From contig JASHOJ010000142.1 of the NCBI GenBank assembly GCA_030041155.1, positions 437-64,436 on the forward strand: DNA of 64,000 nt, read 5' to 3'. The position numbers and the translations under genes were made by a program. The notes below the pieces were generated by a model, which was given only the letters and a program-made list of their open reading frames with translations, did no database searches and was not told the origin of the DNA. The DNA is from Candidatus Binataceae bacterium (GTDB lineage: Bacteria > Desulfobacterota > Binatia > Binatales > Binataceae). Shown here piece after piece: positions 33,869-41,670 of the stretch; position 1 is the stretch's first letter; each line of letters opens with the position of its first letter.

Positions 33869-34648
33869 ATGGCTTACGGCAGCCGCCCCGGTCATCCGCA
33901 CGGTCTCTTGTCGGTCTGGCCGCGCTGGGAGCGACTGGTTCATCAGGTCCGTCCGGTGCAGCCGATTCCTGGCGCAAAGCACGGACTGTTCAGGCTGCGC
34001 TACCGCACTTATCGCGGTGAGATATTCGCGCTTCCCGACGGAACTATCGTGTGCCACGGATGCACCGTCGCGGATTTGCACCTTGACGGGATGGCGATGC
34101 TGAACCTGGTCAAGGCCGGCGGCAACCCGTTCCGCGGATGCCGAGAGGAGCTGCGCCTTCTGGCCGCCTCGCTTATCGAGAGCGATCCCGACGGGCGGCT
34201 GGTCGCGTTCAAAGGCGTCACCCTGCTCGGCAACGCCGCCGAACGTATCGGATTTTTTGTCCGCCAGCGCCCCGTCGGAAGGATCAAGGCTCGGATTGAA
34301 CGATGGTTCATGTCGGGTTTTCTGATTCTGTACACAGTCGACGGGATGGAGCGGCTCGGGCGCGGCGCCACAATGCGGGAAAACCCGCGCGAGGTATGGC
34401 TCACGCGTCAAACCCTGATACGGAAATACGGGCCGAAAAACCACTCCAGTGATGTTGCTCAGAACAGCGGAAGCGCGATGCCGGAGGTCACCAGCGCGCC
34501 GGTCGCCACGCCCATCAGCGCCTCGCCCGCTATCATCCCGGCGGCGAACAGCACTCCGACTGCGCCGGACTCGCCGTCGCCTTGGCCCAGGCGGGCGCGC
34601 AGCAGCGCGCCAAGCAATATCGTGACGCTTAGTCCGAACGGCAGATAG
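33869..34648 (+). CDS. hypothetical protein (3' end overlaps convergent OPT transporter gene by ~190 nt; may be truncated/shadow)
   Basis: The central portion has protein-like composition (…IFALPDGTIVCHGCTVADLHLDGMAMLNLVKAGGNPFRGC…). The N- and C-terminal tails are Arg/Pro-rich and likely spurious. Confidence 0.35.
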   Translation: MAYGSRPGHPHGLLSVWPRWERLVHQVRPVQPIPGAKHGLFRLRYRTYRGEIFALPDGTIVCHGCTVADLHLDGMAMLNLVKAGGNPFRGCREELRLLAASLIESDPDGRLVAFKGVTLLGNAAERIGFFVRQRPVGRIKARIERWFMSGFLILYTVDGMERLGRGATMRENPREVWLTRQTLIRKYGPKNHSSDVAQNSGSAMPEVTSAPVATPISASPAIIPAANSTPTAPDSPSPWPRRARSSAPSNIVTLSPNGR

Positions 34649-36270
34649 AGACCGATCGCAACCGGCATGATCGGCGCTCGCCACGACGAGCCGGCGCGTT
34701 CCAGCGCCACGTCCACGATTCCTATCGCTGCCGCAAGCACCGCCCCCGCGATTATCATCGTCCACGGCAGACCGCCGCGGAAAACCCCCTGCGCGACCTT
34801 GGCCATCAGGAACGCCTGCGGCGCCGCAAGCGCATTGGCCTTTGCGGTTGCCGTTCCCGCGATTCCATAGCCGCTAACCAGCAGGTTGAGGATCGGTGCG
34901 ATCACCAGCGATGCGGCTATCGCACCAATCACAACCCCGATTTCAAGCGACCGCGGAGTCGCGCCGACGTGATATCCGGTCGCGAGATCGTGCAGCGAGT
35001 CACCCGCCATGGCGGCCGCGGTGCACACAACCGCTCCGGCAAGAATCGCAAGCCGCGGTCCGAGGTTAACATCGCCAATCCCGGCCCACCTTAGATAAAC
35101 CGCGATCGCCAGCAGCACTATCACGGTGACGCCCGAGACCGGATTATTCGACGAGCCAACGATTCCGGTCAGATAGCCCGCGACCGCCGCGGCAAAAAAA
35201 CCGATTATGGCCAGGATTATCGCAAGCGAGACGCTGAGCCATATCCGCCCCGAAAGCATCAGGCAGAGCGCGAAGATGATCGGCACCGCAAGACCCTGCG
35301 CCGAAAGAAGAGCGCCGGCGGAGAGATCGGTGTCCTCGCGCGAGCGGGCAACTGCCTCGCGGCGGGTCCGTATCGCCCGGATGCTATCGATTAGCGCGGT
35401 GCCGATTCGGCTTCGAAGCCGCCACAGAGTCGCAATGCCGCCGGTGAGCATCGCGCCGACGCCCAAGTAGCGAACCTGAGTGCTCCACAGGTGAGATGCT
35501 GCCGCCGCCGCGGATCCGGTCGCCGACGCATGATACGAGAGCATCAGCGCCGGAATCGCGATGAACCACGCAATGGCGCCGCCGGCGAATACCAGCGCCG
35601 CGATTCGCGGCCCAATAATGTAGCCGACGCCGACGAGCGCCGCCGATATGTCAACCGAGCTCGCAATCGCCGCTCCGCCAACCCATCGCGCGCCCGAGAG
35701 CGCACCCGGCACGACACCGAATACGTCCTGAACCGCCTTCAGAGCCGCCGCAACCAGCCCGCCCCACGCAAGCGGCGCGACGCTGGCGCTCGCCTCTCCG
35801 GCGCGCAGCACCTCGGCGCAGGCGAACCCTTCGGGAAACGGCAGCCGCTCATCGACGACATAGGCGCGGCGCAGGAACACGACCAGCAGCGCGCCCATCG
35901 TGCCGCCGGCGGCTGACAGCAGCGTCACCTGCACATAAGGCAGCCGGCCATGCCCGCTGAGAATCACAATCGCGGGGAAAGTGAAGATTGCGCCCGCCGC
36001 CACCGCCTCTCCCGCCGAGGCGATGGTCTGAACGACGTTGTTCTCCAGGATGGTTGCGCCGCCAAGAACCCGTAGCAGCGCCATCGATATTACCGCTGCC
36101 GGGATGCTCGCTGAGACGGTCATGCCCGCATACAGGCCCAGGTACGCGTTGGCGGCGCCGAGTATCAGCGCGAGCACGATTCCGAGCACGATCGCGCGCG
36201 CGGTCAGCTCGCGTATCGCGGCCACCGATCGCGCTGCTACACCAGGCTCGGGCGTCGGATCGTTGCGCAT
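34459..36270 (-). CDS. OPT family oligopeptide transporter
   Basis: 603 aa with >12 TM helices. N-terminal TARAIVLGIVLALILGAANAYLGLYAGMTVSASIPAAVISMALLR is typical of OPT. Confidence 0.85.
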   Translation of the reverse strand: MRNDPTPEPGVAARSVAAIRELTARAIVLGIVLALILGAANAYLGLYAGMTVSASIPAAVISMALLRVLGGATILENNVVQTIASAGEAVAAGAIFTFPAIVILSGHGRLPYVQVTLLSAAGGTMGALLVVFLRRAYVVDERLPFPEGFACAEVLRAGEASASVAPLAWGGLVAAALKAVQDVFGVVPGALSGARWVGGAAIASSVDISAALVGVGYIIGPRIAALVFAGGAIAWFIAIPALMLSYHASATGSAAAAASHLWSTQVRYLGVGAMLTGGIATLWRLRSRIGTALIDSIRAIRTRREAVARSREDTDLSAGALLSAQGLAVPIIFALCLMLSGRIWLSVSLAIILAIIGFFAAAVAGYLTGIVGSSNNPVSGVTVIVLLAIAVYLRWAGIGDVNLGPRLAILAGAVVCTAAAMAGDSLHDLATGYHVGATPRSLEIGVVIGAIAASLVIAPILNLLVSGYGIAGTATAKANALAAPQAFLMAKVAQGVFRGGLPWTMIIAGAVLAAAIGIVDVALERAGSSWRAPIMPVAIGLYLPFGLSVTILLGALLRARLGQGDGESGAVGVLFAAGMIAGEALMGVATGALVTSGIALPLF

Positions 36271-36408: not shown

Positions 36409-36927
36409 TTATGAGCCGAAACCGCCGCCGGACGCCTGTGGCATTTCGACCGGCTTGCCAGCCTGACGCCAGCCGGTGATACCGTCCTTCATCTCGCTTA
36501 CGTCTGTGTACCCTGCCGCAACCGCCCGCCGGGCGGCTTGATCGGAGGCCATTCAATGCAGGTTATGGCAATAGAAAACCAGCTTCGCGTTGTGGTCGGA
36601 AGGCAGCTCTTCGGCAACGTTGTAATGATCTGCTGAGGTCAGCGGACGCGCGCCTGGAATCATGCCTTCTTCGGCGCGGACGCTTGGCACATTCGCATCG
36701 TAAATACGCACGTGCGAATCGGGATTCGCCATCAAGCGGGCGAGATCATCCACATGGATAATGTGGATATTTACGGCCGGTTCGGGCTTATTGTTGATCA
36801 GCGCGCCAATATCGACTGCCCACGCGCGCGACGCGCCAAACGCTACGGCCACAACGAGCATCGCGGTCGCGGCCAGCGTTATAGCGCCCTTCCTCAAAAG
36901 ATGTCGCGATGATTGCATCCGCCGCAT
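36409..36927 (-). CDS. periplasmic single-domain rhodanese-like sulfurtransferase interrupted by in-frame TGA (candidate Sec codon or pseudogene)
   Basis: Signal peptide. HVRIYDANVPSVRAEEGMIPGARPL...KLVFYCHNLH-TGA-MASDQAARRAVAAGYTDVSEMKDGITGWRQAGKPVE aligns end-to-end with the rhodanese fold. The TGA (36553-36555) falls in the active-site loop 5 residues after the Cys. The frame is otherwise uninterrupted. Confidence 0.55.
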
Positions 36928-37007
36928 TGGACACTTGTCAGGCTATCAAAATTCAAATCGCAAGGAACGCCGATCCCATTTCCTGGTATCATAGCTACAG
37001 CGTCACC

Positions 37008-39143
37008 CTATTTCGCTTGCCTGATAGCGACGTACGAGCGTTCGAAAATGTCCAAACGCTTGCTCAGGGTCGCCTCTGCATAGTCGTGCTTTCTAACTGT
37101 CCGAAGCTTCGAAATCGAGCGGCGGATCATCGACGCCGGAAGTGTAAACACCATGCGTTTATGTTCGTGCCATATCTCTCGAAGCCACGTCCGCTCCTTC
37201 TCGGTCATTCCTTCGCTTTCCGTTCGATAGACGATCAAACCGAAACGACCATAACTTTGGCCTAAATAGCTCAGCATCTGTCGAAAATCGTCGCGCCCGA
37301 TCTCGACAAAGTTCTTAACTTCCACAGTTAACTGTCGGGTGGCATAGTCCTCAAACACTCGGCGCCAAAAACCGCCTTGTGCCAAGTTCGTAGCAACTAT
37401 GTCGCGCTGCTGCACGTTTCCAGCGTTTGGCTTAAATTGGATGTTCGAAAGTTTGCCCGCGAAAAGGATCCTAAATGCCCGCAAAACCCAATCTTCGAAA
37501 CCTGAATATCCATCATGCCCTAAAGCTATCCGAGGCAGCTCCTCCAGTACTTGTCCGAGGCGCCTAGTCCGAATATCATGGAAGTGGGCTACCCGTTCCC
37601 GAGATTCGGGGTTAAGCCCAGGTTGTTCGAGCTCATCATCCGCGTCGATCACAATGCTATCTTGACCGATTTCCGCAGTCGCATTTAATGCGCGCCAGTA
37701 GCATGGATGAATCGCAATTATTGCGTCGCGTTCCATGTCCAGTAGGTTTGCAGACGCGCCGTCATGGCAGAAGTGGTAATGATCGCTACTAGCATCTTTA
37801 AGCCCGACGAAACCTACGCTGTACAAAGCAACAAAGGCCTCTTGGGCTGAGCCAAACAGTGCAAAATCTGCTGCTGGCTGAGATCCATATCGTTCGCTTT
37901 TGATCGCATTATCAAGCAGCTCCAAAACGAGATGGTATTGATTTAAAGCAGGTTGATTTTCAAAGACTCGGACGAACAATCCAAGACCAGGAAAGACCGT
38001 GTCGTATTCTTTGAGGAGATCGTCGAGCCGGTCGGAAGAGATGCGGTGGCTGGTCGAGACGATATCATCATCGATGATCTCGTGGCGCCCTTGACGCACG
38101 GCCAGCACGTAAGAACTGTTCAACAGCACCAGTAAATCGCGCGGTCGATACAAGGTGTGTTTCAGGCAAAGTTCGAAACCTGTTCGGTCCTGCAAACCGC
38201 GGTCCGCAAAGCGATTCCATACTTTAACATCGCTCTCGACATCGCGCAGATCGTCGAACGCGGCGCGTAGCCTATTGGCTATCAAGTGTAGTAGGGACAG
38301 CTCATCCCAATTTAGTCGAAGAGTCGTACCTTCTATGTGCCTTGAAAAGTCCCGGTCGAAATGTGCCAGCGCTCTGAACATGTTGTCGCGAATGAAAAGC
38401 ACGCCATGGATTCCAACCTTAGAATCTGCGAAATCGGCGACAGCCGCAGCCAATCCGCCCAAGATTGCGGTAGCGGCTTCATCGGGAACCCAACCTTCGT
38501 CTAAACCATCCCACAAGATGATGCCCGAGTGACCAGTTGCCGTGAGCATCGCACGTACATTGTCCTCCAACCAATTAACGCGTAGCTCGGAAGCTATCTT
38601 ACCAGGTATATCATGGGGCGATTGCTTGCTCTGGGCTTTTAGTATAGCGGTGCAACGCTGCGCGCCCGCGGAGGTGGCTAGCAGTGAGTGAGCCTCCTTA
38701 TACATCTGAATGTAGGAATGTTCAGACACTCGCGGAAGCTTATAATGACGAGTCGCCTCAAAGATACTTAGAAGTATATCTATCTTCCAAGCGAGACGGA
38801 GAATGGCGCGGCCGGATCGATAATCCGCATGAACCTCTTGCAGAGCTGTTTGTAAGGCAAGCGTCTCGTGCTCTTTAGGTGTAGAAGCGACTAGAAAGTT
38901 ACCTTGATTATGCTGACCGAAATACTCTGCTGTCTTCTGAAAGAGAGCGCTCTTTCCTGTTCCTCTACGTCCGACGACGCAATTGAAATCCCGAGTATAC
39001 ATCAGCGCTCTGTAATCAGCGGTTTCCACGAACGCCTTCGCTAGCATTACCGAATCCGCTTCTGCACGCCCTGCTCCTAGAACGTTACCAACTAGGTCCT
39101 TAGAGCTCCGCGTCATCACGTGTTGAGCCGTAACTTTAGCCAT
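37008..39143 (-). CDS. P-loop NTPase fused to C-terminal PD-(D/E)xK nuclease-like domain; candidate stand-alone defence protein
   Basis: 711-aa ORF. Walker A GRRGTGKS (aa 58-65) and Walker B GIILWDGLDE (aa 207-216). C-terminal region has GHDGYSGFEDWV ... QQRDIVATN ... LTVEVKNF ... FRQML, consistent with an E...D...ExK restriction-endonuclease-like core. Lower GC than flanks. Confidence 0.6.
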   Translation of the reverse strand: MAKVTAQHVMTRSSKDLVGNVLGAGRAEADSVMLAKAFVETADYRALMYTRDFNCVVGRRGTGKSALFQKTAEYFGQHNQGNFLVASTPKEHETLALQTALQEVHADYRSGRAILRLAWKIDILLSIFEATRHYKLPRVSEHSYIQMYKEAHSLLATSAGAQRCTAILKAQSKQSPHDIPGKIASELRVNWLEDNVRAMLTATGHSGIILWDGLDEGWVPDEAATAILGGLAAAVADFADSKVGIHGVLFIRDNMFRALAHFDRDFSRHIEGTTLRLNWDELSLLHLIANRLRAAFDDLRDVESDVKVWNRFADRGLQDRTGFELCLKHTLYRPRDLLVLLNSSYVLAVRQGRHEIIDDDIVSTSHRISSDRLDDLLKEYDTVFPGLGLFVRVFENQPALNQYHLVLELLDNAIKSERYGSQPAADFALFGSAQEAFVALYSVGFVGLKDASSDHYHFCHDGASANLLDMERDAIIAIHPCYWRALNATAEIGQDSIVIDADDELEQPGLNPESRERVAHFHDIRTRRLGQVLEELPRIALGHDGYSGFEDWVLRAFRILFAGKLSNIQFKPNAGNVQQRDIVATNLAQGGFWRRVFEDYATRQLTVEVKNFVEIGRDDFRQMLSYLGQSYGRFGLIVYRTESEGMTEKERTWLREIWHEHKRMVFTLPASMIRRSISKLRTVRKHDYAEATLSKRLDIFERSYVAIRQAK

Positions 39144-39923
39144 GGTCTTCTCGATGAATCAGCTGGCGAGTGAAAGTCGGTAGGACGCGCGAAGCACAAG
39201 GTCGCCAAATCGATCGCGCTCGGTCGCGGGTGCGTCTAAGATCGCCTCGGGGTATCGACAGGACTGGGTTACGTGCTGCTGCCACAATGACGCGATTTAC
39301 TCGCACCCGCGCGGAGAGTTGCGGAAAAGGCATCTTTGCTTTTCGATAAGCCCGAGTTCCCAATCGTAAGATTTGACTGCGTGGAAGATTACCACGGGCG
39401 TCGGCTCGCTGAAGAGCGAGTTGATGATCACTTCGCACTGTTCTATCCGATTTCGCCCCCTCCATGTTCCACCACGCAAATGAACTATCGGATTTGCGCC
39501 CGCGATCGCATTCTGGTCACGCGACGCTTCGCAACCTAATCCTCGCGCCGCGCGCCGGTTGTGAACTACCAACGATCCGCGAGTTGACCAAAATTCTGAC
39601 CCTTGGTCTTCGTCGCGAGGCTTTGCAATGGGTCTTCTTGCCGTTCAGCATCACCAGCCTAACCGCTGTCCAAATGATTAAGCATCGGTATAACGCGATG
39701 CAGCCAGAACGAAAGAATTGACGCCCGTTGATAGAAACAACAACGCCCCGCGATGTCACTCGCGCATCTTCGACCAAGGCTGCGCGCTTCGAATCGGCCC
39801 GCTTACCTTTGGTCGGTAGCTTTCGAATGTTCCACTAGCTCATCAACTGCGTGTGCCGCTCCGCATCAGGTCCTTGCATCCCCGTGCCTCCGTCTTGGTT
39901 AGGAGCGCTGCATCATTTTCCGT

Positions 39924-40784
39924 TTACGCGGGTTCTTGAATGACTCGGTTCTCGAGCCGCCCGATCTTTTCGATCTCGATTCGGACCGTATCGCCCGCGA
40001 CCAGCCATTTTGGCGGCTTCATGGCCGCCGCAACTCCGCCTGGGGTGCCGGTTGAGACTATTGTGCCCGGCAGCAGAGTAAAGACGGTCGAAAGCGTTTC
40101 GATCTGTTCATAGCAGTTGAACACCAGGTTGCGCGTATTCGAATGCTGCCGCATCTCGCCGTTTACGAAGGTCTTGAGCTCCAGCGCGTGCGGATCACCG
40201 ATCTCATCGGCGGTGACAATCCATGGTCCGGTCGGACCGTGGGTATCGAACGATTTGCCGAGCGTCATCGTCGGCGCGCGGCGCTGCCAATCGCGAACGC
40301 TCACGTCATTGACGATCAGGTAGCCCGCAATCACCTCACGCGCTCGATCGCGCGGCACATGGCGGCACTTTCGCCCGATTACGAAGCCCAGCTCACCCTC
40401 ATAATCCAGCGCAGAGGAGACGCGGGGCAGATGAATTGGCGAATCGGGTCCGGTTACGCAGCTTGACTGCTTGTTGAAGAACATCGGAAACGCCGGCTTG
40501 GTCATGCCGGTCTCCGCGATATGGTCGGCGTAGTTGAGTCCGATTGCTAGAAACTCGGGCGGGCGCAGGATCGGAGCCTCGAGCTTTACCTCGACAAGCG
40601 GTATTCGCGCACCCGCTTGCCCGAGCGCCTTGCGCACCCGGTCCATCGCGCCTGCTCCGGCTGCTAAAAGCGCGGTCATTTCACGCGGAAGCTCGGGCGC
40701 CGCCGCCGCGAGATCCACCACCGCGTCATCAGCAACAACGCCGATTCCCGTCCTGCCCTGATAGGTGAATGTGACCAGTTTCAT
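39924..40784 (-). CDS. fumarylacetoacetate hydrolase (FAH) family protein
   Basis: MKLVTFTYQGRTGIGVV... plus the C-terminal FAH fold (GTPGGV...). ATG 40784 with GGAGG upstream. Track extension rejected. Confidence 0.85.
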   Translation of the reverse strand: MKLVTFTYQGRTGIGVVADDAVVDLAAAAPELPREMTALLAAGAGAMDRVRKALGQAGARIPLVEVKLEAPILRPPEFLAIGLNYADHIAETGMTKPAFPMFFNKQSSCVTGPDSPIHLPRVSSALDYEGELGFVIGRKCRHVPRDRAREVIAGYLIVNDVSVRDWQRRAPTMTLGKSFDTHGPTGPWIVTADEIGDPHALELKTFVNGEMRQHSNTRNLVFNCYEQIETLSTVFTLLPGTIVSTGTPGGVAAAMKPPKWLVAGDTVRIEIEKIGRLENRVIQEPA

Positions 40785-40812
40785 CGCGGCTTCCTCCGGC
40801 ACCGCGCGCCGC

Positions 40813-41670
40813 TTATGGCGCGAACTTGAACGAGCTGCCGTGTTTGGTGATCTTGCCCGCCGATGGAGTGCCGAAATGGGTGCCGAACACCAGCACTCCG
40901 GTATCGGCGTAGCGCTCGCAGAAGGCGCGGCGGGTTTTCTTTGCCTGCGCGCCGTCGGAATCGAACTGATCATCCCATTCGGGGAACATGCATTGAATCG
41001 GATGATGCATCAGGTCGCCGGTGATGACAGCCTCCTGCCCCTTGGATGAAATCCGGACGCTATGATGCCCCGGAGTATGGCCGGGCGTCGGTTCAAGCCA
41101 AATTTCGTCGGTGATCTTGTGCGTCGAATCAATCAGTTGTGCATGCCCGGAGTCGACAATCGGGCGCACCGAATCCTCCACCGGATCGCGCATATCGGCG
41201 CCATCGAAGTGCGACCAGTAATCCCATTCGGTCCCGCCGATCAGGTATTTCGCGTTGCTGAAAGTCGGAACCCACTTATTGTTTTCAAGCGTGGTGTTCC
41301 ACCCGACGTGATCGACATGCAGATGAGTGCAGACCACGTTGTCGATTTTGTCGCGCGTGTAGCCCGCCTTCTTCAGATCGTCCAGGAATGGGAGCTTGAG
41401 CTTGCTCCACGCGGGATTCGAGCGAACCTTATCGTTGCCGATACAGGTATCCACCACGATCCGCTTGCCGCGCGACTCCAACACCAGCGCATGGATGCTC
41501 ATGACGAGCTTGCCCTTGGCGTCCATGAAATGCGGCTGAAGCCAATCCGCGTACTTGAGCATATTCTCAGGCGTCGCGTTGGGCAGAATAAAGGTGCCGG
41601 GCCATGGCGCCTCGCTCTCGATGATGCGGGTGATCTTGACGTCTCCGATCTGCCATGAGTTCATCGTCAT
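40813..41670 (-). CDS. MBL-fold metallo-hydrolase (AHL-lactonase-like)
   Basis: CTHLHVDHVGWN (HxHxDH) and a later TPGHTPGHH metal-ligand block. Confidence 0.8.
   Translation of the reverse strand: MTMNSWQIGDVKITRIIESEAPWPGTFILPNATPENMLKYADWLQPHFMDAKGKLVMSIHALVLESRGKRIVVDTCIGNDKVRSNPAWSKLKLPFLDDLKKAGYTRDKIDNVVCTHLHVDHVGWNTTLENNKWVPTFSNAKYLIGGTEWDYWSHFDGADMRDPVEDSVRPIVDSGHAQLIDSTHKITDEIWLEPTPGHTPGHHSVRISSKGQEAVITGDLMHHPIQCMFPEWDDQFDSDGAQAKKTRRAFCERYADTGVLVFGTHFGTPSAGKITKHGSSFKFAP

Follow-up and report, generated by a model that had tools for sequence, protein, structure and literature searches.

Single proteins that couple an NTPase to a nuclease are known from Gabija GajA, OLD and HEC-04, in which an ABC-type ATPase is combined with a Toprim domain; HEC-04 is also found embedded in Hma loci. 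In Avs/AVAST and other STAND-nuclease proteins (e.g. Avs4), the nuclease is N-terminal and a TPR-like sensor array is present. BrxC of BREX and HmaC (DUF499) are proteins of 900-1300 aa that belong to multi-gene systems and contain no nuclease domain, and the type IIS and type ISP enzymes FokI, BspD6I and LlaBIII carry a recognition or a helicase/methylase module.

The protein analyzed here, encoded in a 64-kb stretch of DNA (the window, meaning the whole stretch analyzed), follows the same single-protein logic as GajA, OLD and HEC-04, but joins an AAA+ ATPase to a PD-(D/E)xK nuclease domain. Unlike the Avs proteins, it has its nuclease at the C-terminus, is only ~700 aa long without a TPR-like array, and has an ATPase closer to the ORC/Cdc6/BrxC kind than to STAND ATPases. 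No PADLOC Avs or NACHT model matched it at E <= 1, Pfam NACHT was not matched, and in the predicted structure we saw no C-terminal repeat (TPR-like) sensor, the chain ending with the nuclease domain. BrxC and HmaC gave no sequence-level PADLOC match. Whereas FokI, BspD6I and LlaBIII rely on the modules named above, this nuclease is steered by an AAA+ ATPase, and the gene has no cognate methyltransferase.

None of the PADLOC v2 models or antiphage-named NCBIfam models matched the protein over its full length, and by sequence comparison it corresponds to no named defence system. An earlier sequence-only reading, which had seen no obvious match to any such system and suggested a PADLOC run, holds for full-length models; it is qualified by local similarity of the nuclease domain to PDC-M36A (4.5e-13) and of the ATPase core to PDC-M28C (5.7e-6). 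Both hits are partial, confined to one domain each, and fall on components of multi-gene candidates that have a different architecture.

The same reading had put the gene forward as a candidate novel system, and this had to be corrected. NCBIfam NF047389 ("P-loop ATPase, Sll1717 family") covers the ATPase module (aa 23-486, model positions 2-454 of 454; E 3.7e-64, with 217.5 bits where the cutoff is 75). The protein is also a full-length homologue of TnpX of Tn1000 (gamma-delta), which was sequenced decades ago (E. coli F plasmid; WP_000422420.1, 698 aa; BLASTP 35% identity over 708 aa, E 2e-151) and bears the same NCBIfam Sll1717 name in RefSeq. The two share Walker A and B, the RDN and RPRD motifs and the E...D...(D/E)xK...Q nuclease residues, with catalytic columns reading EWRDEKNQ in our protein and EWRDDKNQ in TnpX. 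Given the NF047389 match and the tnpX homology, the protein had therefore been seen before and was just functionally uncharacterized. NF047389 spans the ATPase module alone and is silent on the nuclease domain and on function, and we found no experimental report on any family member in the literature under Sll1717, PDC-M36, WP_023332860, WP_000422420 or Tn1000/gamma-delta tnpX.

Domain architecture of the protein

The ORF starts with ATG, and the Walker A, Walker B and nuclease motifs lie at exactly the residues claimed for them from the sequence alone (Table 1). The N-terminal module has an AAA+ base-plus-lid fold together with both Walker motifs. In the predicted structure, FIRDN lies at the end of a strand (aa 245-252) and YRPRD at the start of a lid helix (aa 334-350). 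Further on, three helices (aa 403-416, 422-430 and 433-442) are followed by two strands (aa 446-449 and 455-458), a modeled topology that probably represents the C-terminal winged helix of an ORC/Cdc6-type ATPase. What had been described as a helical middle of unknown type is thus the AAA+ lid plus the probable winged helix. The module is structurally similar to Cdc6/ORC, DnaA and RFC, and it resembles ORC/Cdc6/BrxC rather than McrB. Pfam AAA_30, AAA_16 and AAA_22 remained below their gathering thresholds (12.6-14.2 bits against cutoffs of 27-33).

The C-terminal domain adopts a restriction-endonuclease-like alpha/beta fold. Its key residues are carried by GFEDWV (E550), QQRDIVATN (D581), LTVEVKNF (E608, K610) and RDDFRQML (Q622), which the predicted structure places on helix 542-561, strand 580-586, strand 604-610 and helix 617-626, respectively. 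All five are invariant in the 40-sequence alignment, in agreement with the E...D...ExK core proposed earlier. As modeled, the domain has both the fold and the catalytic residues that characterize the PD-(D/E)xK superfamily, and it is predicted to cleave DNA in a metal-dependent manner. Structurally, it comes closest to three groups: cleavage domains (LlaBIII, BspD6I, FokI), modification-dependent enzymes (AspBHI, MspJI) and defence effectors (Cap4, Shedu, Avs4). Repair nucleases of the NucS and Hjc type match as well, at lower Z.

Table 1. Features of the gene and its surroundings, in window positions. Invariant residues refer to an alignment of 40 sequences with 45-79% identity.
Feature	Position	Strand	Protein residues	Remarks
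Genome-specific segment ("islet") between conserved flanks	36773..39926	.		blastn against relatives L081/L082
Sll1717/TnpX-family ATPase-nuclease CDS, intact	37008..39143	-	711 aa	ORF list; NCBIfam NF047389
ATPase module: AAA+ base, helical lid, probable winged helix	37686..39077	-	23-486	
Walker A, GRRGTGKS	38949..38972	-	58-65	Invariant G58, R59, R60, G61, G63, K64
Walker B, GIILWDGLDE	38496..38525	-	207-216	Invariant D212, L214, D215; E216 in >=90%
FIRDN, core-strand end: probable sensor-1 region	38382..38396	-	250-254	Invariant F250, R252, D253, N254
YRPRD, lid-helix start: probable sensor-2 arginine	38136..38150	-	332-336	Invariant R333, R335, D336
Probable winged-helix domain, three helices then beta hairpin	37770..37937	-	403-458	From model topology alone
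Flexible linker	37578..37640	-	502-522	pLDDT <50
PD-(D/E)xK nuclease domain, C-terminal (predicted)	37011..37577	-	523-711	
Catalytic constellation	37278..37496	-	E550, D581, E608-V-K610, Q622	37494-37496, 37401-37403, 37314-37322 and 37278-37280, respectively
Spacer without intact gene, 780 bp, GC 0.56	39144..39923	.		Contains hmaA remnant
hmaA (SNF2 helicase) N-terminus remnant, 58 codons	39261..39434	-		In-frame stop 39297-39299

Genomic setting and the Hma locus

Compared with the 38 remaining long ORFs in the window, the gene has a GC content of 0.510 (mean 0.607+-0.022, z = -4.4) and a GC3 of 0.524 (mean 0.708+-0.033, z = -5.6), and it is the lowest-GC 2.1-kb stretch of the window. The compositional drop noted from the letters is borne out by these values; the figure of 65-70% GC given for the surrounding DNA was overstated, the background being ~60% and the local flanks 0.60-0.69. 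The neighbors named earlier were recovered by Pfam as an OPT transporter and an FAA hydrolase, with a rhodanese-like gene between the OPT gene and ours. As also claimed, no companion methyltransferase is present: window ORFs searched with Pfam contain no cognate enzyme of restriction-modification types I-III within 3 kb of the gene. A scan for promoters and terminators gave counts no better than shuffled sequence and no convincing promoter; the gene in the window may be a relic that is no longer expressed. Rfam returned nothing credible around the gene. Comparison with close homologues indicates purifying selection (pN 0.13-0.16, pS 0.78 and saturated, pN/pS ~0.17-0.20).

By blastn, the flanks at 34456-36218, 36440-36772 and 39927-41666 match the relatives L081 and L082; the intervening segment does not. 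These syntenic relatives lack the gene; the low-GC segment is missing between their conserved flanks, in line with the presence/absence comparison proposed earlier for this junction. Within the islet, only 37009-39114 matches homologue loci. We looked for att-like repeats, a tRNA gene or an integrase at the islet; the repeats were short and at chance level, and the window contains no tRNAs.

The closest homologues (75-78% identity) lie between hmaA and hmaB in three independent Hma loci (L105, L107 and L110). Neighbors in L105 and L107 match HmaA (1e-170), HmaB (3e-87) and HmaC (1e-88), and the HmaB adjoining these homologues is part of the Hma system, not a cognate methyltransferase. The protein itself matches none of the HmaA, HmaB and HmaC models and is not an Hma component. 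Non-Hma contexts account for most of the 80 genomic loci, for the plasmids and for Tn1000, so that the gene is found between hma genes in some genomes and elsewhere too, the pattern sought by guilt-by-embedding (Payne et al.). Seven of nine candidates put to that test were validated (bioRxiv 10.1101/2024.01.29.577857).

The decayed DNA noted earlier in the island is borne out by the upstream spacer, which holds the stop-interrupted N-terminus of an hmaA helicase. With aa 12-69 of the HmaA proteins from L107 and L105 as queries, tblastn detected this remnant (45-48% identity; E-values of 6e-7 and 8e-6 in a 64-kb search space), and its strand and its position upstream of our gene are those of hmaA in L105, L107 and L110. 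The four small ORFs of the spacer have no Pfam match above threshold, and the spacer has no Rfam match and no DNA-level homology to relatives or homologue loci. The window copy probably came embedded in an Hma system (hmaA-X-hmaB) of which, after later decay, only a stub of hmaA and the embedded gene itself, still intact, are left. The segment is better described as a relic of a larger Hma locus than as the mobile defence islet first proposed, and the window would be an example of defence-locus erosion in which the Hma system is gone and the embedded passenger is kept.

Family distribution and variants

The family has at least 970 full-length homologues and forms 1,445 clusters at 50% identity. 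Its phyletic distribution is patchy, and members are carried on mobile elements (375 plasmid records, 15 IMG/VR contigs and 2 Klebsiella phage records). A conserved partner gene was sought by all-against-all clustering of ORFs within 5 kb at 80 loci; no neighbor family recurred in more than seven, in keeping with the stand-alone gene described earlier. The largest cluster (7/80 loci) consists of loose ABC ATPases at varying distance and on either strand.

Some members carry an extra domain, identified by Pfam as a cyclase, CHAT, PNP_UDP_1, metallophosphoesterase or sigma54-AAA domain; in 2 of 10 such representatives (P0304 and P0246) the extra region contains no identified domain. The catalytic nuclease residues are intact in none of these 10 but in 51 of 69 plain ~700-aa forms (p = 9e-6). 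An exchange of the nuclease for other effectors was considered and rejected, as the nuclease-like domain is present in each of the 79 representatives that reach 640 aa. Domain gain is accompanied by loss of the catalytic residues, not of the domain, which makes the family a clean natural test case for effector replacement. Because the remaining 18 of the 69 plain forms also lack the triad, nuclease activity is not family-wide.

The tnpX gene starts 16 bp past the small serine recombinase gene tnpR and lies inside the Tn1000 inverted repeats. As cargo in this position, it falls under the RADS criterion (PMC13552941). When scored for tnpA, tnpR and 38-bp inverted repeats, TnpX is Tn1000 cargo; the window copy, in contrast, lacks a Tn3 module and probably goes back to an Hma locus. 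A Tn3- or Tn7-type transposon in the window was rejected, since we detected no similarity to tnpA or tnpR at E <= 1e-3 and no conserved transposase neighbors.

A probable defence role and its alternatives

We consider it probable that the gene product is an ATP-gated nuclease that works autonomously as a single polypeptide and defends against invading DNA (phage, possibly plasmids). Genomic context provides good evidence for such a role, the phenotype itself being predicted. Besides the Hma loci, a family gene on a Vibrio plasmid adjoins a Gabija-like pair and an ABC-3C system, and other neighbors of family genes match PARIS AriA, MADS, PD-T4/T7 and type I RM models, all as individual instances. 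Carriage on plasmids, a transposon and phage-like contigs points the same way.

For trigger, oligomerization and substrate we infer the following. The ORC/Cdc6/BrxC-like AAA+ module with its winged helix would act as a nucleotide-dependent switch, which would bind DNA, or else respond to a cue from the invader, and form oligomers. Oligomerization would bring together the C-terminal FokI/Mrr-like PD-(D/E)xK domains, non-specific cleavage modules that require pairing, and the paired domains would cut DNA, either that of the invader or, in an abortive mode, that of the cell. If so, this would be a compact single-gene immune system with a combination of ORC/Cdc6-like AAA+ ATPase, winged helix and PD-(D/E)xK nuclease unmatched by named systems. 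It is about an even question whether the Sll1717/TnpX family as a whole is a distinct and widespread class of autonomous immune proteins. Their ORC/Cdc6-type AAA+ switch would directly control a nuclease of the FokI kind; in derived members the part under control would be a cyclase, protease, nucleosidase or phosphoesterase attached to a dead nuclease scaffold.

A narrower form of this defence reading, not its opposite, would make the protein a type IV-like, modification-dependent and NTP-dependent restriction enzyme whose winged helix/ATPase recognizes modified or non-self DNA for the nuclease to cut. Such an enzyme requires no methyltransferase. We regard this form as unlikely: Pfam detected no SRA, EVE, YTH or other known modified-base reader, the ATPase is not of the McrB kind, and the cyclase, CHAT and PNP variants are better suited to signaling or abortive-infection logic.

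Another alternative is a selfish function that serves a mobile element instead of host immunity, either as an accessory for transposition or target choice (TnsC/MuB-like ATPase plus TnsA-like nuclease) or as a weapon of competition or addiction benefiting Tn1000-like elements and plasmids. Tn3-family transposition needs just TnpA, TnpR, res and inverted repeats. Of the 80 genomic loci, a single one has a Tn3-type transposase or resolvase nearby, and the window has none; no transposase is a conserved neighbor, and the homologues closest to our protein lie within Hma defence loci, all of which makes such a function improbable; an anti-plasmid role would be defence all the same. It is very improbable that the protein has a housekeeping task in DNA replication or repair, with an ORC/Cdc6/DnaA-like ATPase joined to a repair nuclease, or that this genome merely retains a non-functional remnant: the structural likeness to Cdc6/ORC, DnaA and RFC, the lower-Z matches to NucS and Hjc-type nucleases and the decay of the surrounding Hma locus are set against the patchy distribution, the carriage on plasmids, a transposon and phage-like contigs, the absence from syntenic relatives, the atypical composition and an intact ORF with all invariant residues kept.

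If the family is indeed such an immune class, tnpX, third among the Tn1000/gamma-delta genes and carried for decades by the F plasmid and laboratory E. coli, would serve cryptically in defence or against plasmids. This would give a function to an orphan gene of biology's best-studied plasmid and would make Tn3-family transposons vehicles for immunity genes. No phage-resistance phenotype of tnpX has been reported despite decades on the F plasmid and in DH5alpha and JM83, both of which carry the gene, so its activity may be narrow, aimed beyond the classic coliphages, or absent. K-12 derivatives carry the E. coli member natively, which makes the proposal open to direct test. Among 5,426 complete E. 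coli genomes, 126 have tnpX, and the gene is also found on clinical plasmids of Klebsiella, Escherichia and Enterobacter, in the hundreds.

Domain architecture and composition

The 711-aa ATPase-nuclease had been read from the sequence alone as a P-loop NTPase fused to a PD-(D/E)xK nuclease, and translation of the ORF placed every motif quoted for it at the expected residues. Pfam returned only sub-threshold matches to AAA families. Residues 23-486 match NCBIfam NF047389 ("P-loop ATPase, Sll1717 family") with 217.5 bits against a cutoff of 75, and PHROG 13260 (unknown function) spans the same residues. An AlphaFold model based on a 40-sequence alignment was confident (pLDDT 84.9, pTM 0.75) and consists of two bodies separated by a disordered linker (aa 502-522); the structural matches listed include archaeal SSO1545 and PAB2304, MuB and DnaA, and Foldseek was in agreement. 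Family match and model together confirm the domain call. In the model, FIRDN (aa 250-254) and YRPRD (aa 332-336), both invariant, would occupy the positions expected for sensor-1 and sensor-2, and aa 403-458 form three helices and a hairpin in what appears to be a winged-helix topology. What had been called a helical middle of unknown type is thus modelled as an AAA+ lid and, probably, a winged helix.

The gene has a GC content of 0.510 and a GC3 of 0.524, compared to means of 0.607±0.022 and 0.708±0.033 for the 38 other long ORFs of the window (z = -4.4 and -5.6), and it is the lowest-GC 2.1-kb stretch within the window. The low-GC anomaly is therefore real, although the background is ~60% GC rather than the 65-70% first supposed. 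Pfam upheld the OPT transporter and FAH hydrolase as neighbours.

Features of the ATPase-nuclease gene, its product and its surroundings
Feature	Position	Strand	Basis
ATPase-nuclease gene, 711 aa	37008-39143	-	ORF list
Walker A GRRGTGKS	aa 58-65	-	coordinates checked
Walker B GIILWDGLDE	aa 207-216	-	coordinates checked
Nuclease motifs	GFEDWV (E550), QQRDIVATN (D581), LTVEVKNF (E608, K610), RDDFRQML (Q622)	-	coordinates checked
OPT transporter	34459-36270		Pfam
Rhodanese-like gene	36409-36927	-	Pfam
FAA hydrolase	39924-40973		Pfam
Metallo-beta-lactamase-fold protein	neighbour of the ATPase-nuclease gene		Pfam
HmaA remnant (matches aa 12-69 of L107 and L105 HmaA helicases)	39434 down to 39261	-	45-48% identity

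Family distribution, Hma loci and Tn1000

The ATPase-nuclease architecture is conserved and widespread. The family comprises at least 970 proteins (90% clustering), nearly all of ~700 aa and with 95-99% coverage, and the ATPase module is matched by 1,445 clusters at 50% identity. We collected 80 loci from one-genome-per-species contigs, covering Pseudomonadota, Myxococcota, Acidobacteriota, Nitrospirota, Planctomycetota, Verrucomicrobiota, Bacillota and others. At most 7 of these loci have any neighbour gene family in common, the cluster in question being heterogeneous ABC ATPases, and on this ground the gene is autonomous. Mobility is evident as well: 375 plasmid records carry the gene, mostly conjugative plasmids of Klebsiella, Escherichia and Enterobacter, as do two Klebsiella phage records of 110 kb each and 15 IMG/VR viral contigs. 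Many enterobacterial plasmid copies (H19-H22, H45-H51) are interrupted by IS1, IS3 or IS5, and others retain just a ~470-bp 3' fragment (aa ~545-698); on clinical plasmids, the gene is often inactivated.

In three independent loci, the nearest homologues (75-78% identity) are situated between hmaA and hmaB of the helicase-methylase-ATPase (Hma) phage-defence system, in the orders HmaA-HicA-HicB-X-HmaB (L105, identical to L001 and L106), HmaA-X-HmaB-HmaC (L107) and HmaA-X-HmaB (L110), where X is the homologue and PADLOC identified the flanking hma genes with E-values of 1e-170 to 1e-87. Other close homologues (L108, L112/L113) are solitary, amid housekeeping genes. Hma-embedded genes are frequently defence systems, with seven of nine tested candidates active, and it has been argued that independent systems should occur outside Hma too (Payne et al., bioRxiv 10.1101/2024.01.29.577857). 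None of those candidates, HEC-01 to HEC-09, has the architecture of the window protein, and their ATPases are ABC-type. The Hma loci of L105 (1-3325, 14857-18040) and L107 (208-875) resemble parts of integrative or conjugative elements, with a Toprim/LPD7 protein, an AAA ATPase, HicAB and Phd/PIN toxin-antitoxin pairs, a ThiF-like protein and an HTH/Peptidase_M78 pair.

A Vibrio plasmid has a Fic protein on one side of the gene and a Gabija-like AAA-ATPase/UvrD pair on the other, with an ABC-three-component system next in line; integrases flank the gene on Pantoea and Enterobacteriaceae plasmids. Among the immediate neighbours across the 80 loci are matches to MADS, PARIS AriA, PD-T4 and PD-T7 systems, to MzaA and to a specificity subunit of type I, which is a listing and not an enrichment over a control set.

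On an Enterobacter IncF plasmid, the family gene lies after genes for a Tn3-family transposase and resolvase. Of 5,426 complete E. coli genomes, 126 have a 90%-identical copy, annotated "P-loop ATPase, Sll1717 family", at 73 places on chromosomes and 58 on plasmids; DH5alpha, JM83 and MG1655 derivatives are among them. In DH5alpha, transposase (1002 aa), recombinase (183 aa) and a 698-aa family protein form a unit of ~5.98 kb flanked by inverted repeats GGGGTTTGAGGGCCAATGGAACGAAAACGTACGTTAAG. We identify this unit as the F-plasmid transposon Tn1000/gamma-delta and the gene for the 698-aa protein as its tnpX (PMC6340991, PMC7880599). TnpX aligns end to end with the window protein (E 2e-151, 35% identical residues), and every motif is retained; no description of what it does was found in the literature searched. 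The Tn3 association is clade-specific, with a Tn3 module at only one of the 80 loci and none in the window. Defence genes have been found by their position after a small serine recombinase gene (PMC13552941), and tnpX begins 16 bp past such a gene on the same strand.

In DH5alpha (L087, NZ_CP025520.1, 153943-168038), the complete Tn1000 sits exactly at the junction of two truncated genes, one for an ion channel (next to yciI and tonB) and the other mhpD (next to the mhp operon and lacI), and therefore marks the endpoint of a large rearrangement or deletion.

Loss of nuclease catalytic residues, and function

Extra domains occur in several long representatives: an adenylate/guanylate cyclase, a CHAT protease, PNP_UDP_1 at either terminus, a calcineurin-like phosphoesterase or a sigma54-type AAA+ domain with HTH. 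This repertoire is typical of immunity and conflict systems. The nuclease-like domain is found in all 79 representatives with a length of 640 aa or more, extra-domain forms included; D...(D/E)xK is intact in 0/10 extra-domain forms compared to 51/69 forms of 640-760 aa (Fisher p = 9e-6). Eight extra-domain members (P0241, P0244, P0274, P0298, P0305, P0307, P0352, P0359) thus keep a nuclease-like domain that is predicted to be catalytically dead. The pattern fits a model in which the nuclease would provide the output in standard-form proteins and a gained toxic or signalling domain would replace its function but not the domain itself. The model is qualified by the 18 of 69 standard-length representatives that likewise lack the triad; these may rely on an effector encoded elsewhere.

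ATPases of the ORC/Cdc6/BrxC/TnsC type are nucleotide-dependent, DNA-bound oligomerising switches, and FokI-type domains cleave non-specifically and have to pair up before both strands are cut. Fusion of the two predicts that the protein would first assemble upon a cue or DNA and then cleave, either invader DNA or, in an abortive mode, self DNA. An autonomous ATP-gated nuclease against invading DNA is the best-supported model, and we consider it reasonably probable. A type IV-like modification-dependent enzyme, a sub-case of defence, seems doubtful. A selfish transposon or plasmid function we regard as quite unlikely. Strong claims for defence by an ATP-gated nuclease are weakened by tnpX itself, which has long resided in heavily used laboratory strains where, to our knowledge, a phage phenotype was never noted.

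The sequence-only reading had seen no obvious match to a named system. This holds for PADLOC v2, in which no model covers the protein (partial domain matches to PDC-M36A and PDC-M28C only), and among antiphage-named NCBIfam models none covers it; judged by its sequence, however, the protein is already known, as a member of a catalogued family and a homologue of a gene sequenced with Tn1000. Its function is undescribed in the literature searched, and 2026 Nat Microbiol work on nuclease-NTPase defence may overlap. We regard it as a candidate variant of NTPase-nuclease single-protein defence. The main interest lies in the Tn1000/F-plasmid link and in nuclease decay with domain gain, which make the hypothesis directly testable in E. 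coli.

The locus in the window genome and its proposed history

Two relatives (L081 and L082; OPT 76-78% identical) share the order Lactamase_B/FAA hydrolase ... rhodanese/OPT and have different cargo, or none, where the window gene would be, so that the proposed comparison of the OPT-FAH junction finds it absent from both. DNA homology to them covers 34456-36218, 36440-36772 and 39927-41666, and ~36.8-39.93 kb is genome-specific in this comparison; homology to the homologue loci is limited to the CDS (37009-39114, 72%). Against close homologues, pN is 0.13-0.16 and pS is saturated at ~0.78. A housekeeping role, or a dead leftover, is highly improbable.

The interval from the FAA-hydrolase/Lactamase_B genes to the rhodanese/OPT genes has a GST in L081, a polysaccharide deacetylase and a luciferase-like oxidoreductase in L082, and an Hma relic with the ATPase-nuclease in the window. 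Cargo differs in each of the three related genomes, and gene turnover has a local hotspot here. No intact ORF in the 780-bp spacer upstream of the gene matched a family; the spacer does include, on the strand of the gene, the HmaA remnant (E 6e-7 and 8e-6, 64-kb search space), which contains an in-frame stop. HmaB, HmaC or HicAB remnants were not detectable at the locus, nor were att-like flanking repeats, tRNA genes or an integrase found there. In the simplest history, an hmaA-X-hmaB locus would have been acquired at a variable spot and later mostly deleted, the embedded gene staying intact.

The rhodanese-like gene between OPT and the ATPase-nuclease has an in-frame TGA at 36553-36555 (...LVFYCHNLH*MASDQAARRAVAAGYTDV...), beyond which the same frame continues to a full-length 172-aa rhodanese (PF00581, 2e-10 with the stop read as Cys). 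No tRNA-Sec gene is present within the window, and a GC-rich hairpin 3' of the UGA in both TGA-bearing genomes folds no better than shuffled sequence (z = -0.19 and -0.75). The L082 orthologue has the same TGA and the L081 orthologue a Cys at the corresponding position (NLQCGAS), and this Cys/UGA pairing across three genomes points more to a periplasmic rhodanese with selenocysteine than to a pseudogene.
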